Below, piece by piece: positions 18,130-23,619 of a DNA stretch of 64,000 bases (the first letter of the stretch is position 1; every line of letters starts with the position of its first letter). Origin of the DNA: an uncultured Nitrososphaerota archaeon. Lineage in GTDB: Archaea; Thermoproteota; Nitrososphaeria; Nitrososphaerales; Gagatemarchaeaceae. Position numbers and translations under genes: made by a program. The DNA lies in NCBI GenBank assembly GCA_963718895.1, contig CAVRAG010000008.1, positions 160,001-224,000 of the forward strand, written 5' to 3'. A model generated the notes under the pieces. It ran no database searches. It was not told the DNA's origin and saw only the letters and a list, made by a program, of their open reading frames with translations.

Positions 18130-19269
18130 TTGTCCGACGATCCAGTCTTGTTCGAGACCGAGGCCGGTCTCGTGCTCATGCAGGGGACGAAGGTCCTCGC
18201 CACGGAAAGGAGGAGCCAGGTCCGAGCCCAGGGTATCGCGAAGATCGGAGAGAGAGCGAGGGCCGAGGGGATGGAATCGATACAGGCGATGGACGCCGAG
18301 GCTTCGCAGGAACTCAGGAAGCTCGGGTTCAGCGTGACCATTCTGACAGAACCCGAGCTCAACGAGCTCAACAGCCGGAAGATCGCGATCATCGTGGCGG
18401 CGGGGCTAGCGCCCGGAGAGCAGGAAGCCCTCGACCTCGTCAGGCAGGGAGCCCTGGAGGCGGCCGAGCGGAAGATCAGCACCGAATCCTCGCGGGAGGA
18501 CCTGCAGCTCGTCCACGGAATCCAGGCGCTCGACGAGCTCGACCGGTTCCTCAACATCACCTCCGAGCGCGTCGCGGAGTGGTACAGCCTGCACTTTCCG
18601 GAGCTCCAGCAGATGATAGGCGACAACGTCGCCCTCTGCAAGGTCATCGTCGAGAACGGGTCGAGGAGCCAGTTCACGGAGGCGAAGCTGGAGGGGAAGG
18701 GCTTCAGCGACAAGAAGATCGAGGCAATCATCACCGCGGCCGAGAGGTCGAAGGGCGGCACCGTCACGGAGAGGGACATGGGGCGGATCGTCGGGCTCGC
18801 GAACGTCGCGCTCGCGGTCTCAGGGGACAGGGACAAGCTCGCCGAGTACGTCGAGTCGACGATGAAGCGGATCGCCCCGAATACCACAAGCGTCGCCGGC
18901 GCCACGATAGGGGCCCGGCTCATCGCAAAGGCGGGGGGTCTGGACAGGCTGGCGAGGCTGCCGGCGAGCACCATCCAGGTCCTCGGCGCCGAGAAGGCCC
19001 TCTTCAGGGCGCTCAGGACGGGCGCGAGGCCTCCGAAGCACGGGATACTCTTCCAGCACGACGCGGTGCACAGCGCGCCGAAGTGGCAGCGGGGAAAGAT
19101 AGCGAGGGCGCTCGCGAACAAGATCGCCATAGCGGCGAGGATAGACTTCTACAGGGGCGAGAAGGAGGAGGCGCTCACCGGTACGCTCGAGAAGAGGCTG
19201 GACGAGATCAGGGTAAAGTATAAGGAGCCAAGGGAGACCGTCGAGCCGAAAAGATCGTTACAGAGATGA
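18130..19269 (+). CDS. nop5: Box C/D sRNP protein Nop5 (Nop56/58)
   Basis: EWYSLHFPEL, IAPN, PASTIQVLGAEKALF, PPKHG. Confidence 0.95.
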   Translation: MSDDPVLFETEAGLVLMQGTKVLATERRSQVRAQGIAKIGERARAEGMESIQAMDAEASQELRKLGFSVTILTEPELNELNSRKIAIIVAAGLAPGEQEALDLVRQGALEAAERKISTESSREDLQLVHGIQALDELDRFLNITSERVAEWYSLHFPELQQMIGDNVALCKVIVENGSRSQFTEAKLEGKGFSDKKIEAIITAAERSKGGTVTERDMGRIVGLANVALAVSGDRDKLAEYVESTMKRIAPNTTSVAGATIGARLIAKAGGLDRLARLPASTIQVLGAEKALFRALRTGARPPKHGILFQHDAVHSAPKWQRGKIARALANKIAIAARIDFYRGEKEEALTGTLEKRLDEIRVKYKEPRETVEPKRSLQR

Positions 19270-19928
19270 CAAACGTCCTCGTTATGGCAAGGGGCGGAAG
19301 GGAAGAGGTTTTTACAAGGAACCTCGTTCCGGGCAACAGGACGTACGGCGAAGACCTTATCAGAATAGAAGGGACTGAGTTCAGAGCCTGGGACCCGTTC
19401 AGGTCCAAGCTCGGGGGCGCGATCCTCAAGGGTCTACCCCAGGACGTGATACGCCCAGGCGACAAGGTGCTCTACCTGGGGACCTCCACGGGGACCACCC
19501 CTTCGCACGTCTCAGACATTGTGGGCCCGAGGGGGCTGCTCATCGGGGTCGAGTTCGCTCCCCGCGTCGGGAGGGAGTTCGTGGAGAACGTCGCCAGGGT
19601 CAGGCGGAACGTCGTCCCCTACATAGCAGACGCCCGCGAGGCCGAGAGGTTCGCGTCCTTCGGAAAGGTGGACGTCGTCTACTGCGACATCGCGCAGCAG
19701 GACCAGACCGAGATAGCCATCGAGAACTGCCGGAGGAACCTCAAGAAGGGAGGCAGGCTCATCCTGATAGTGAAGTCCAGAAGCATCGACGTCCTGAGAG
19801 AGCCCAGGGACGTCTTCCGCCAGGAGGGAGAGAGGCTTACGAAGGCGGGCTTCGGGGTCGAGAGGATCATCGAGCTGAGTCCCTTCGACAAGGACCACGC
19901 CCTGATATCTGCGGTGTTCGCCGGCTAG
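19266..19928 (+). CDS. flpA: Fibrillarin-like rRNA/tRNA 2'-O-methyltransferase
   Basis: RAWDPFRSKL, VLYLGTSTGTTPSHVSD, YCDIAQ, PFDKDH. Confidence 0.96.
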   Translation: MTNVLVMARGGREEVFTRNLVPGNRTYGEDLIRIEGTEFRAWDPFRSKLGGAILKGLPQDVIRPGDKVLYLGTSTGTTPSHVSDIVGPRGLLIGVEFAPRVGREFVENVARVRRNVVPYIADAREAERFASFGKVDVVYCDIAQQDQTEIAIENCRRNLKKGGRLILIVKSRSIDVLREPRDVFRQEGERLTKAGFGVERIIELSPFDKDHALISAVFAG

Positions 19929-20604
19929 GGGATGAGCGTCGAGGCGAGGATCCGGTCCCAGGTCTTCCAGCTTCTCCTTGCGAACGACGGGATGGCGCCC
20001 TCCCTCTCCACCCACCTCCTGAGGTAGGTTATCGTCTCGCCGTCCGAGGGATATCCTGAACCGAACTCCCCGTGTTCCGTTCGGAGGAGTTCGACAGCTC
20101 TGTCCCGTTCGACCTTCGCCACTATCGAGGCGGCAGAGACCACCACGTAGTTCTTGTCCGCCCTGTGCTCGGCGACTATTCTAGGCTTGCACGACATCAA
20201 ATCCCCCAACTCTCTCGTGAACCTCATCGGGTTCGTGTCAGGGGCATCGACGTACACCTCCTCCGGGTTCATGAGGTCTATTATCTTCGCCATGTGGAGA
20301 GCTTCAAGAAAGTTGAGGCGTCGATATTTTTTGCCCACCCTAACGTATCGGTCGATCTCCTCCGGTTCCGCATACGAGACCTGGACAGACTCGCACAACT
20401 CGACTATCTCAGGGTACATTGATTCTCTTTCGGTTGACGAGAGGGCCTTCGAGTCCTTCACTCCGAGCTCCTTCAGCAGTTTCAGCGATTGATACTTTAT
20501 GGAAACTCCAGCTACAACTAGGGGCCCAAGTACAGAACCTTTCGGGGAGCGGATTTCTCAACGCGCTCTCTCCCAGCTTCATCGACCCCTCCAACGAGCC
20601 TTAT
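19925..20604 (-). CDS. rnhB: Ribonuclease HII, two exons (20604-20570 and 20540-19925), 216 aa after splicing
   Basis: Exon 1 (M)RLVGGVDEAGR plus exon 2 GSVLGPLVVAGV...GVKDSK...YVDA...HRAD..VVSAASIVAKVERD...GSGYPSD; joined length 651 nt, in frame. Confidence 0.93.
20541..20569 (-). other. 29-nt bulge-helix-bulge archaeal intron in rnhB mRNA
   Basis: UGGG/CCCG 4-bp central helix, AGA and AAA 3-nt bulges, GAGCG/CGCUC intron stem, GAAGC/GGUUC exon stem; canonical cuts restore GGG AGA GGU (G-R-G). Confidence 0.9.
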
Positions 20605-21627
20605 TTGACGATCACCCGCTTTTCACCCTGAACCTTGCGCCAATTAGAGTTTACCTTTTCGACGAGGCCAAGCCGGGCCATCTCTGTAAGCCTTCTCGCG
20701 ATGGTTTTCTGGTCCCTGCTAAGCATAACAGAGATCTCGTAAGGTCGGCGCGGAACGATGAGCACGTCCAAGATTCTGGACTTCTCCAAGGAGATGACGA
20801 CGCTCCTCTGGTCGGTCCTGATCCAGTAGTATGTGCTTCTAACCTTGTACACTTCAATCTGTTCTCTTCTGCGCAGGTCGGAAAGAACTTGGTAAGCCCT
20901 CGCATCGCCCCTTTCGATGCTCTTTGCAACCTCATGCGTGGTCATAGGCGCGAAGAGAGCCCCTAGAACCAATGGCGGGAGAGAGTCGCGCTGGTAGTGT
21001 CGTTGTTTATAGGAGTCGAGCATTGCAAGGAATTTCGCGTGCTTCTTGGAATGTAACTCGGTTATGCCAATGCGTTGAAGTTTCTCCAGATTCTCTCGAC
21101 CAGAGATGAGGTAATTCCTCCCTGAAACCTCATACAGGAAAGACACCTCGTAGTGCCGCAGGATTCGTTCGACGAAGTTCATTCGCTTGCCTTCCGCGAT
21201 TCGCAGACACCTCGTATGACTACTTTTGGAGGTCTTTGATGTTCCCCTCCCCTGCAAAAAAGCCTTGGAGCAAGCCTTGATAGTTTGAGGGAGCTTTGCG
21301 CGCGAGTCTAACTGTCTTCTTCCAATCCCGGACTAACTCAACATCTGCGACTCTGTAGATATAATAAGGCACATTTGCTCTCCTATCGACATACGTTCGG
21401 TAACGGACATCGGCTACGGGTCGAACGAAGTCAGTGAAGACCGAGGGACGATAGACGTAGATTCGAGGAGAGTTGCGTGGTCGAAATCGCGCCCAGAGCG
21501 CTTCGTGGAAGAAGCGTACAAGGAACGGATCGTTGTTGGTGAAGGTAACTTCACTGGAAGATCTCTTGTCGCCTTCCGCGGTCCATAGCCCAACAATCCG
21601 GGCAAGATCGAGGTCCGAATCGCTCAT
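20601..21627 (-). mobile_element. Free-standing double-motif LAGLIDADG homing endonuclease-like gene with two C-terminal winged-HTH-like domains (one frameshift near 21235)
   Basis: Motif 1 ARIVGLWTAEGD followed by VTFTNND, motif 2 GLLQGFFAGEGN; visibly more AT-rich than the flanks; stop overlaps the rnhB start. Confidence 0.8.
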
Positions 21628-21852
21628 GAACCAGAAGGATGTGGAAGTATATCAGCATCCCTACTCGCAAGGCCCTGCGGCAGAATCAGCTATTGCTTGT
21701 TCGTGATGGGCCAACCAAGTTCAATAAGCATATACCGAATTCGAGTTGTACAGAGTTGTTATTGTGAGCGTACAACCTTTCGAGAATCAAGTGCACGGCA
21801 AGCGGGCTCAAAAACTGATTCTTGTCGCAAGGCTTACTCGCAACGATCCACC

Positions 21853-22401
21853 CTAGGTCTGCTGCGGAGGAAGAACCGCGAGTATCTGCCTCGCCAGCGA
21901 TTCGGGCAGACCCTCCCTGTTGTGAAGCGTGACTTCGGTCATCTCCTTGCCGGGGAGCCCCCTGAACTCGTCGACAAGAGGGTCCCTGATCTTGTCGTGG
22001 ACGACCGCGAGGATCGGCTTGCCGGACCTGAGGCATGCCTCGGCCGCCCTCTTGAACTCCGGGCTGGTGAGCTCCATCGGACCCACCTCGTCGATGGCGA
22101 TCAGGTCAGCCATCTTCGAGGCCCCGGCGAGCGACACCGCCCCTACCTCGACCAGACCCTTGAGGTCGACCCTGTACCTCCCGACCCGCGGTCCGAGTAT
22201 GCCCTCGGACGAGGCGAGCCTACCCTCCACTCCGCTCATCAAGTCCAGTATCGTGAAGCCCGTCCGCTCCCTCCCCTTCCGTCTCTCCTTGGTGAGGCAC
22301 CCGCCGACCCCGTAGCCGCGCGACCTCACCAGGTAGATGACCTTGGAGACCACGGTGGACTTGCCTATCCCAGGGGGACCGGTCAGGAGCCACGCGCGCA
22401 C
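21853..22401 (-). CDS. Nucleoside triphosphatase (THEP1/NTPase_1 family)
   Basis: LTGPPGIGKST, RVGRYRVD, IAIDEVGPMEL. Confidence 0.92.
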   Translation of the reverse strand: MRAWLLTGPPGIGKSTVVSKVIYLVRSRGYGVGGCLTKERRKGRERTGFTILDLMSGVEGRLASSEGILGPRVGRYRVDLKGLVEVGAVSLAGASKMADLIAIDEVGPMELTSPEFKRAAEACLRSGKPILAVVHDKIRDPLVDEFRGLPGKEMTEVTLHNREGLPESLARQILAVLPPQQT

Positions 22402-22467
22402 AGGGGAGGACAATGTCAGGAGTCCAATTCTGCTCCGCTTAAATGCTTCACGACGAGGCGGTCCCGC

Positions 22468-23619
22468 GTGCTTCCGAAGCTCGAGGTCATCCGGGAGGGA
22501 CGGACCGAGCTCTACGTCCCCTCGCAGAGCCTCGCCGGGACCCCTCCCGCAACCCACCCGGTGTTCTTCAATCCAGCCGCGAGGACGAACAGAGACATCT
22601 CAGTCGCGGTCGCCGCGGTGACCAGACCGGGGACCTACCTTGATGTCCTCGCCGCGGCCGGGGCGCGCGGGATCAGAGTCGCAAACGAGTCCAACTCGAA
22701 GACGCACGTCACGCTCGTCGACTTTAGCGGACCGTCCCTCGCCGTGGCGAGGAAGAGCATCAGGAGGAACCGGCTCCATGAGCGGTGCGTCGTGGTTCAC
22801 GAAGAGGCGAACAAGTTTCTCGTCTCGCGGTTCGAGCGGCCCGAGAAGTTCGATGCCATCGACCTGGACCCCTTCGGGTCACCCGCTCCGTTCGTTCTCG
22901 CGGCCACGATGGCGGCGGCGGACGGGGGCGTCCTCTCGGTGACGGCGACCGACGCAGCCGTCCTCTGCGGCGTCTATCCGGCCGTCTCGGTCCGCCGCTA
23001 CGGCGCTCTGGCGGTGAGGAGCGAGTTCGTCCACGAGACCGGTCTCCGGATCCTGCTGGGTTACGCGGCCCGGATGGGCGGGGTCAACGACATCGGGATA
23101 GAGCCGATAGCGGCCCACAGCACCCTGCACTACCTCCGGGTCCTCCTCAGGATCAAGAGGGGGGCGGCGAGAGCAGACGAGTCAGTCGGGAGGCTCGGCT
23201 ATGTCACGCAGTGCAACGGATGCGGCTGGAGGGCGTCGGGGCCCATCCCATTAGACCGGTGCCCTCATTGCCGCCTCCGAGTCCGGTCTGCGGGCCCACT
23301 CTGGACGGGGAAGCTCGTCGACGAGCAGATAGCCTTCGAGGCCTCTGGCTTCTGCGAGGAGGCGGGCTGGAAAGAGGCCGCGGCCATCCTTCGGTCGTTG
23401 AAGGGCCTTGACGACTTCCCGACCTTCAGCTACTCCCCCGAGCGGGTCTGCTCGCGACTCAGGATACCCTCGGTCCCCACACGCGGTGCGATCGATGCCC
23501 TCGTCGGTTCAGGGTTCAGTGCGGCACGGCAGCCCTTTGAGGAGAACGGAATCAAGACCAGTGCGAGCTACGCGGAGTTCGTCCGTGCCCTGCGCACGGC
23601 ATCAGGTACGTCTGCCTAG
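22468..23619 (+). CDS. trm1: tRNA (guanine26-N2)-dimethyltransferase
   Basis: VFFNP...NRDISV, DAIDLDPFGSP, SVTATD, HETGLRIL, AGPLWTG; GTG start at 22468. Confidence 0.92.
   Translation: MLPKLEVIREGRTELYVPSQSLAGTPPATHPVFFNPAARTNRDISVAVAAVTRPGTYLDVLAAAGARGIRVANESNSKTHVTLVDFSGPSLAVARKSIRRNRLHERCVVVHEEANKFLVSRFERPEKFDAIDLDPFGSPAPFVLAATMAAADGGVLSVTATDAAVLCGVYPAVSVRRYGALAVRSEFVHETGLRILLGYAARMGGVNDIGIEPIAAHSTLHYLRVLLRIKRGAARADESVGRLGYVTQCNGCGWRASGPIPLDRCPHCRLRVRSAGPLWTGKLVDEQIAFEASGFCEEAGWKEAAAILRSLKGLDDFPTFSYSPERVCSRLRIPSVPTRGAIDALVGSGFSAARQPFEENGIKTSASYAEFVRALRTASGTSA

Follow-up and report, generated by a model that had tools for sequence, protein, structure and literature searches.

The 64,000-nucleotide (nt) stretch analysed here (the window) comprises positions 160,001 to 224,000 of contig CAVRAG010000008.1, from an uncultured Nitrososphaerota archaeon of the family Gagatemarchaeaceae (assembly GCA_963718895.1), and its minus strand carries rnhB, the gene for RNase HII. 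Within the codons for the catalytic motif DEAGRG this gene is interrupted by 29 nt (window positions 20541-20569), and our comparative data indicate that the insert is very probably a bulge-helix-bulge (BHB) intron, spliced from the transcript of the only RNase HII gene in the genome. A first-pass annotation had proposed such a tRNA-type intron. Among the readings considered it alone fits the comparative data, namely covariation of the helices, the absence of read-through, purifying selection, and the presence of genes for the splicing endonuclease EndA and the ligase RtcB. We also lean towards the view that the intron and a LAGLIDADG endonuclease gene immediately upstream form a homing and immunity partnership. 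The source genome is metagenome-assembled (3.13 Mb in 11 contigs, 80.5% complete, contamination 5.4%) and yields a single RNase HII match.

Exon 1 (20570-20604) consists of 11 codons plus 2 nt and reads (ATA)-R-L-V-G-G-V-D-E-A-G-AG. Exon 2 (19925-20540) supplies the last base of the split Arg codon, 204 further codons and the stop codon; the 204-codon frame (19925-20539), which begins GSVLGPLVVAGV, matches Pfam RNase_HII with an E value of 7e-40 over profile positions 9-198. The minus-strand letters of 20535-20580 are those given in the first-pass annotation, and the 29 nt do part DEAGR from GSVLGP. If each bulge is cut after its second base, exactly 20569-20541 is removed and ...GCU GGG AG is joined to A GGU UCU..., so that the motif is restored in silico; the predicted spliced junction is the exon 1 end ...GCTGGGAG followed by AGGTTCTG...

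The whole BHB motif (20535-20580, minus strand) can be drawn in the canonical form with a free energy of -14.3 kcal/mol. Its outer helix pairs GAAGC (20580-20576) with GGUUC (20539-20535), and its central helix pairs UGGG (20575-20572) with CCCG (20546-20543) over 4 bp, one of which is a U.G pair. The two bulges that flank the central helix, AGA (20571-20569) and AAA (20542-20540), are 3 nt each. Inside the intron follow a 5-bp inner helix (GAGCG/CGCUC, 20568-20564 and 20551-20547) and a small GUU/AAU stem with a GAGA loop (20562-20553). In the minimum free energy (MFE) fold computed with RNAfold, both the inner helix and the capped GUU/AAU stem are retained, as are a bulge of 3 nt on the 5' side and another of 3 nt on the 3' side. 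A stricter BHB filter gave about 26,000 matches in 6.25 Mb at 45 lengths, or about 1e-4 per fixed site and length. No Rfam family matched within 19000-23000.

We propose that the RNA from the last bases of exon 1 (GCU GGG AG) through the intron to the first bases of exon 2 would fold into two 3-nt bulges around a 4-bp helix, that a heteromeric EndA would cleave after the second base of each bulge, and that RtcB would ligate the exons and thereby re-create the catalytic motif DEAGRG. Unspliced mRNA would yield only a short frameshifted peptide. Among the public sequencing runs listed for the locus there was no RNA run, and the one metatranscriptome compared with it gave no coverage; neither result bears on whether the gene is expressed.

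The enzymes for such a reaction are encoded in the genome. RtcB was found with an E value of 2e-169, and two EndA paralogs of 185 and 181 amino acids (aa; 33% identity) each have N- and C-terminal tRNA_int_endo domains. The EndA genes lie on contigs C8 (116589..) and C7 (620834..). The EndA catalytic triad is Tyr-His-Lys, and one of the two paralogs lacks the His, which points to a heteromeric enzyme. According to a passage in one study, heteromeric EndA is the type reported to accept relaxed motifs (PMC5829648).

ARAGORN predicted introns in many tRNA genes of the genome, the long-intron calls being doubtful. A tRNA-Thr(ggt, 13-nt intron)/tRNA-Leu(cag) pair occurs on both C8 (~1603402-1604085) and C10 (321-1017), and C9 and C11 each have a tRNA-Pro(ggg) whose intron measures 19 nt, which suggests duplicated or strain-variant contigs in the assembly. 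In four species of the genus (G013, G016, G017 and G020; L189-L192, L197-L200) an RtcB frame of ~996 aa is open, and the match to a 438-aa query is split into residues 1-53 and 51-438; judged by these sequences, this RtcB looks as if it contained an intein.

A whole-genome scan for further mRNA introns by the BHB motif was dropped. It gave 26,174 matches against 26,199 in a reversed-sequence control, and 2,678 against 1,146 after a filter for open reading frame (ORF) joining; these were still too numerous for inspection, and the filter had no discovery power.

Inserts at the same site in other archaea

In a first comparison, an insert in the same codon was present in 9 among 61 relatives, and a tenth (G006) was confirmed from its DNA. 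We then searched 97 genomes of the family for any insert of 18-48 nt between DEAG and GxxxGP, setting aside by eye the matches outside rnhB. Inserts of 26, 28, 29 or 30 nt were found in rnhB of 16 genomes, belonging to 5 of the 10 genera. Their inner hairpins are unrelated between genera, and two introns of genus g6 differ by compensatory pairs. A stricter pattern, applied to 401 genomes of the class, returned family members only and one chance match; it fixed the Gly codon (GGGAG...CCCNNNAGG), so its zero matches outside the family do not exclude inserts with other Gly codons.

Metagenome contigs were scanned with an 18-member alignment of the upstream endonuclease, and the best 80 of 192 relatives were taken as loci. 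Four of these were short of downstream DNA. In 73 of the 76 evaluable loci, exon 1, an insert and exon 2 lie directly 3' of the endonuclease stop codon. One locus (L102) carries the endonuclease gene without rnhB. The rnhB relatives at L039 and L041, in Aigarchaeota-titled and Aenigmatarchaeota-titled records, are intronless at the site.

Insert lengths range overall from 20 to 46 nt, and the offsets from the Asp codon are 6, 13, 14 and 16 nt, all within a window of ~10 bp. Two loci (L106 and L170) were assigned by eye. The intron of L106 lies between the Glu and Ala codons (GAC GAA, intron, GCA GGT CGT), 8 nt upstream of the usual site, with its own 4-bp helix (GACG/CGUU, by eye). L170 is intron-bearing and its exon 1 reads IEEAGR, in which Glu replaces the first catalytic Asp.

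Selection on the RNA structure was assessed from cuts defined by the protein. We listed every pair of cuts by which D[ED][ASV]G[RKSNT]G...G[PSA] is restored, using 96 loci (80 from metagenomes, 16 from genomes). A frame-restoring solution exists in 87 of them (71 metagenome and 16 genome loci), comprising 78 distinct inserts after de-duplication. At these cuts, 70 of the 78 inserts have all 4 central-helix pairs and at least 3 stacked inner pairs, a combination reached in 30 of 15,600 trials with shuffled introns, and 76 form at least 3 of the 4 central pairs. The inner helix runs to only 2 pairs in L120 and 1 in L163. Slid cut positions lose the protein motif, save inward slides along a continuous helix.

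In the main class (n=65), whose cut falls 14 nt past the Asp codon's first base, central-helix pair 1 is C-G in 19 inserts, U-A in 17, A-U in 11, G-C in 7, G.U in 7 and U.G in 1, with 3 non-pairs. Pair 4 is G-C in 27, U.G in 17, C-G in 11, A-U in 5 and U-A in 4, with 1 non-pair. These covarying pairs involve wobble positions of the Ala and Gly codons. The length of 61 of the 78 inserts is not a multiple of 3 and the other 17 all contain an in-frame stop; none of the 78 can be read through. We conclude that the comparison strongly supports a BHB-type RNA structure kept by selection at the frame-restoring cuts.

The upstream LAGLIDADG gene

Unnoticed in the first-pass annotation, the 'TrmB-like' gene upstream of rnhB is a putative LAGLIDADG homing endonuclease gene that follows the intron in its occurrence. 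The copy in the window is broken into two overlapping minus-strand ORFs. The N-terminal piece (21220-21627) holds the motifs GLWTAEG and GFFAGEG, and the C-terminal piece (20601-21257) holds the rest of the second LAGLIDADG domain and two winged-helix domains; this second piece matches the Pfam TrmB helix-turn-helix and aligns to residues 128-349 of an intact 349-aa homolog. The two ORFs represent one gene with a 1-nt frameshift in a CAAAAG run (~21222-21230), which is either genuine or a homopolymer error. Intact homologs of ~340-350 aa have two LAGLIDADG motifs and two winged-helix domains, and in 18 of 18 aligned proteins both GLWxAEG and GFFAGEG are invariant, each with its Glu.

A sequence search against PDB chains found nothing useful (best E 0.14), so a fold search was needed. 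The AlphaFold model of an intact homolog (pLDDT 92) matched I-DmoI in Foldseek with an E value of ~1e-5 and a TM score of 0.64-0.66, as well as I-Tsp061I, E-DreI and I-AniI, and its C-terminus matched SelB winged helices. These matches accord with two alpha-beta-beta-alpha-beta-beta-alpha domains of the LAGLIDADG fold. On this model the protein belongs to a divergent LAGLIDADG branch, recognised by fold, and the gene product would be a monomeric, double-motif homing endonuclease, a putative nuclease. There are 374 homologs at E <= 1e-5, one of which is named 'LAGLIDADG family homing endonuclease' by its source; the source names include Nanoarchaeota, Woesearchaeota, Aenigmatarchaeota and Diapherotrites. 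A viral vector for the gene was considered and set aside, as IMG/VR holds one weak relative (24% identity over 133 aa).

A match to the gene was obtained in 14 of the 97 family genomes. In 13 of these it lies at the rnhB locus, the fourteenth being a weak match elsewhere in G455. All 13 locus-borne copies end at most ~25 nt upstream of rnhB exon 1, all 13 genomes are intron-bearing, and in none of the 97 genomes does the gene stand beside an intronless rnhB. Thus, a free-standing endonuclease gene with an adjacent, ORF-less intron occurs in 13 of 13 such family genomes, as it does in the 73 metagenome loci. It is intact in five genomes (G006, G029, G371, G451 and G494) and broken or a remnant in eight (G000, G009, G010, G016, G017, G019, G020 and G448). 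Three intron-bearing genomes lack it (G027, G449 and G430), G430 keeping the gene's last codons. Close relatives with an intronless rnhB include G012 and G001. Upstream of it in the window is an NTPase_1 (THEP1-type) gene (21856-22557, minus strand; Pfam E 1.7e-48). In relatives without the endonuclease gene, the NTPase_1 gene directly precedes an ATG-started rnhB and therefore marks the insertion point of the cassette.

These arrangements suggest that the intron could be one half of a cassette and the upstream gene the other. The endonuclease would cut intronless rnhB alleles in the conserved DEAGRG-coding stretch, and repair from a cassette-bearing allele would copy endonuclease gene, exon 1 and intron together. 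The intron would split the recognition site and so protect the carrier genome, an arrangement known as collaborative homing. After fixation the endonuclease gene would decay, as in the window, while the intron would persist, since it does no harm provided that EndA and RtcB function. Decay of the gene, genomes with the intron alone and several offsets within ~10 bp would support a homing partnership of this kind, which we judge somewhat the better account of the linkage. More tentatively, and with slightly less confidence than even chances would give, we suggest that the BHB mini-introns are immunity inserts against a free-standing LAGLIDADG endonuclease that targets the DEAGRG-coding site of rnhB. 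They would then be the first collaborative-homing system in Archaea, apparently spanning Nitrososphaerota and DPANN, with at least four intron origins or moves within a 10-bp target.

Several observations weigh against a homing role. The match to LAGLIDADG_3 reaches 17-22 bits, below the Pfam cut-off of 22.5; the top Foldseek match is WhiA, a non-catalytic regulator with LAGLIDADG and helix-turn-helix parts; and the endonuclease gene adjoins an intronless rnhB in two metagenome loci (L159 and L164). The metagenome loci, as the best-scoring relatives, are not a random sample. No signal of co-conversion was seen in the tree of rnhB exon 2, in which the intron-bearing alleles are not united, and a patchy distribution can arise from repeated loss. 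In L164 the motif DEAGRG is replaced by DDAARG, perhaps a variant of the target site.

An alternative that we regard as rather unlikely, though deserving of attention, accepts the intron as real and spliced and takes the LAGLIDADG protein for a domesticated regulator or RNA chaperone of rnhB, or for an endonuclease with another target that has the intron as an unrelated neighbour. The two loci with an intronless rnhB and the WhiA-like fold keep a regulator or maturase in play: bI3 maturase is also among the Foldseek matches, the two winged-helix domains are typical of regulators, and the overlap of the endonuclease stop with the rnhB start suggests co-expression. However, both catalytic Glu residues are invariant in the aligned proteins, and WhiA is not known to have such acidic residues. 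In 11 of the 16 intron-bearing family genomes the gene is either decayed or absent, so neither splicing nor rnhB function needs it. Its distribution is patchy across phyla, and unless selection favours interruption of a single DNA site, four intron offsets inside 10 bp are difficult to account for.

Two trees bear on the mobility of the cassette. The first, built for the genus from RtcB alone, has 21 rows, of which 3 are of unknown state, and both of its well-supported clades hold intron-bearing and intron-free members; the starred branches force at least two state changes, and the maximum-likelihood tree needs six. The rnhB exon 2 tree likewise mixes the two states and broadly mirrors the RtcB tree, and since it does not group the intron-bearing alleles, it gives no signal of whole-gene co-conversion. 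The mixed states in both trees indicate that the cassette was gained or lost among close alleles, and the trees do not say which.

Fold stability, the rnhB start codon and remaining alternatives

The intron has evidence to contend with as well, in its fold and in the start of the gene. The MFE of the motif (-16.3 kcal/mol) is unremarkable, with a z score of +0.79 and 160 of 200 shuffles at least as stable. In the MFE fold the 3' bulge is displaced by one base (U16 pairs with A51, not with G48), and the canonical BHB lies 2 kcal/mol above it. The outer helix of the window is weak (C-G, a G-G mismatch, then 3 bp). This weakness of the outer exon-exon helix is general: its first pair forms in 68 of the 78 inserts and its second is nearly always a mismatch, the typical pattern being one pair, a mismatch and then 1-3 pairs (pair, x, pair, x, pair). 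These features fit a relaxed BHB better than a strict hBHBh'.

As to the start of rnhB, no in-frame ATG, GTG or TTG lies between the upstream stop and the Asp codon in the window, and 35 of 79 distinct exon 1 contexts lack an upstream ATG, GTG or TTG. The first-pass annotation had claimed that splicing restores an intact RNase HII of 216 aa. The frame is indeed restored, but the full length assumes a non-canonical ATA start (20604-20602), which shares bases with the TAA that ends the upstream ORF (ATAA). The homologous position is ATG in some relatives (e.g. G371 and G027) and ATA in most family members, and the overlap between the endonuclease stop and the rnhB start, ATGA in relatives, has become ATAA in the window. 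Among the 79 contexts, a nearby ATG is present in 19, only GTG or TTG in 25, only ATA in 28 and none of these in 7. A hexamer conserved in relatives, GGTGAT (20611-20616, minus strand), lies 6 nt 5' of the ATA and resembles a Shine-Dalgarno sequence, judged against the archaeal 16S 3' end. Initiation at AUA or termination-reinitiation is possible. In one relative (G010, locus L003) an additional A (AAATAAAGG) 5' of exon 1 puts the ATA out of frame with exon 1 and a TAA in frame; this reflects either an error of long reads in a homopolymer or another irregularity of the start codon.

The missing canonical start, the frameshift in a homopolymer run of the neighbouring endonuclease gene and the incompleteness of the assembly could be taken to mean that rnhB is a pseudogene, the 29 nt having arisen by a disabling insertion or by faulty assembly. 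We consider this very improbable. Interruptions of this site recur in 16 independent genomes and 73 metagenome loci, with different sequences and the BHB kept. The first-pass annotation had named decay of exon 2 beside a second, intact rnhB as the mark of a pseudogene. No second rnhB was found in the genome, and all nine intron-bearing genomes tested have an open exon 2. Its dN/dS values are 0.06-0.38 (0.11-0.15 in the four least saturated pairs), which indicates purifying selection on it. Moreover, a 151-nt DNA unitig from a public peat run, which may be the source sample, spans 20467-20617 with zero differences.

Hardly any weight falls on retention of the insert in the mRNA with programmed frameshifting or ribosomal bypassing, for which the ~50-nt translational bypass in phage T4 gene 60 offers a precedent and to which a 29-nt insert readable in principle as 10 codons after a -1 shift would lend itself: inserts vary from 20 to 46 nt and the 17 that are multiples of 3 all contain in-frame stops, the catalytic DEAGRG would be split by ten added residues, a non-systematic inspection by eye of the window and G019 showed no take-off and landing codons that match, and conservation is seen in a covarying RNA helix and its 3-nt bulges and not in a slippery site.

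On the far side of rnhB, its ORF (end 19925, minus strand) converges with a fibrillarin ORF (19266-19928, plus strand), the stop regions overlapping by 4 nt, and a Nop5 gene (18130-19269) overlaps the fibrillarin start by 4 nt.

Relation to known introns and homing systems

The first-pass annotation knew of no description of rnhB as an intron target, and we found none either: the full-text literature, with most subscription journals outside its scope, held no report of a BHB intron in rnhB or of an archaeal homing endonuclease tied to RNase HII. A BHB intron in the mRNA of cbf5, the pseudouridine synthase gene, was reportedly described in Crenarchaeota by Watanabe in 2002. Passages of a 2009 paper on cbf5 state that splicing had been confirmed for no other archaeal pre-mRNA, introns in other genes being predicted (PMC2738675), and a passage of a 2020 paper names the cbf5 mRNA intron as the only one reported besides its own 5' untranslated region (UTR) case (PMC7714728).

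As far as that account of cbf5 goes (Yokobori 2009, PMC2738675), the two cases are alike in having a tRNA-type intron in a coding sequence, spliced by proteins in cbf5 and by prediction in rnhB, a gene prediction broken at the site, patchy gain and loss, and hosts with heteromeric EndA, a probable one for rnhB. They differ in the target and in the lineages, which here are a Nitrososphaerota family and, by the source names of the endonuclease homologs, DPANN. The rnhB introns are also very small and sit at four neighbouring offsets, and they are linked to an adjacent homing endonuclease gene, a link that does not appear for cbf5 in the parts of the paper cited (PMC2738675). The 5' UTR intron of HVO_1309 in Haloferax volcanii is likewise an mRNA substrate of the splicing endonuclease, beyond tRNA and rRNA; as described in part of that report (Schwarz 2020, PMC7714728), it lies in a UTR and was verified experimentally, whereas the rnhB intron lies in a catalytic motif and is predicted from sequence.

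Archaeal rRNA and tRNA BHB introns that encode I-DmoI or I-Tsp061I share with the rnhB locus the pairing of a BHB intron with a monomeric, double-motif LAGLIDADG protein, and the fold is closest to I-DmoI. In those introns the endonuclease gene is inside the intron, whereas the rnhB-linked gene is free-standing, ~35 nt upstream of a non-coding mini-intron, and encodes two extra winged-helix domains. WhiA similarly has two LAGLIDADG-fold domains followed by a helix-turn-helix DNA-binding module. In contrast to the rnhB-linked gene, which is patchy and often decayed, it is a conserved housekeeping regulator, and the invariance of both Glu residues further sets the rnhB-linked protein apart.

Homing in trans is reportedly known from mobE and I-TevIII of phage T4. 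In cyanophage S-PM2, a free-standing endonuclease gene, F-CphI, adjoins the conserved psbA gene, whose group I intron lacks an endonuclease of its own and interrupts the presumed target (Zeng 2009, as summarised in a passage of PMC6083498), an arrangement like that at rnhB. The introns of these phage systems are group I ribozymes that splice themselves, and the endonucleases come from other families, whereas the rnhB intron would need host EndA and RtcB in archaeal cells, with putative cleavage and immunity.

If the intron is spliced as predicted, rnhB would be a second coding target of BHB introns, with a position conserved across distant archaeal lineages, and the tRNA-splicing pathway would mature mRNAs more widely than thought; gene callers would systematically truncate genes with such introns. 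A model that can be tested follows from the linkage to a free-standing LAGLIDADG gene: BHB introns would be gained and kept in protein genes as protection from a homing endonuclease, and the endonuclease family may yield new rare-cutting enzymes with a known, highly conserved target. If the model is true, collaborative homing would extend from phage group I introns to protein-spliced introns of Archaea, and attack by homing endonucleases would be a recurrent birthplace of introns within the protein-coding genes of archaea. It would also mean that RNase HII, an enzyme of replication and repair, is held hostage to the tRNA-splicing machinery in these organisms.

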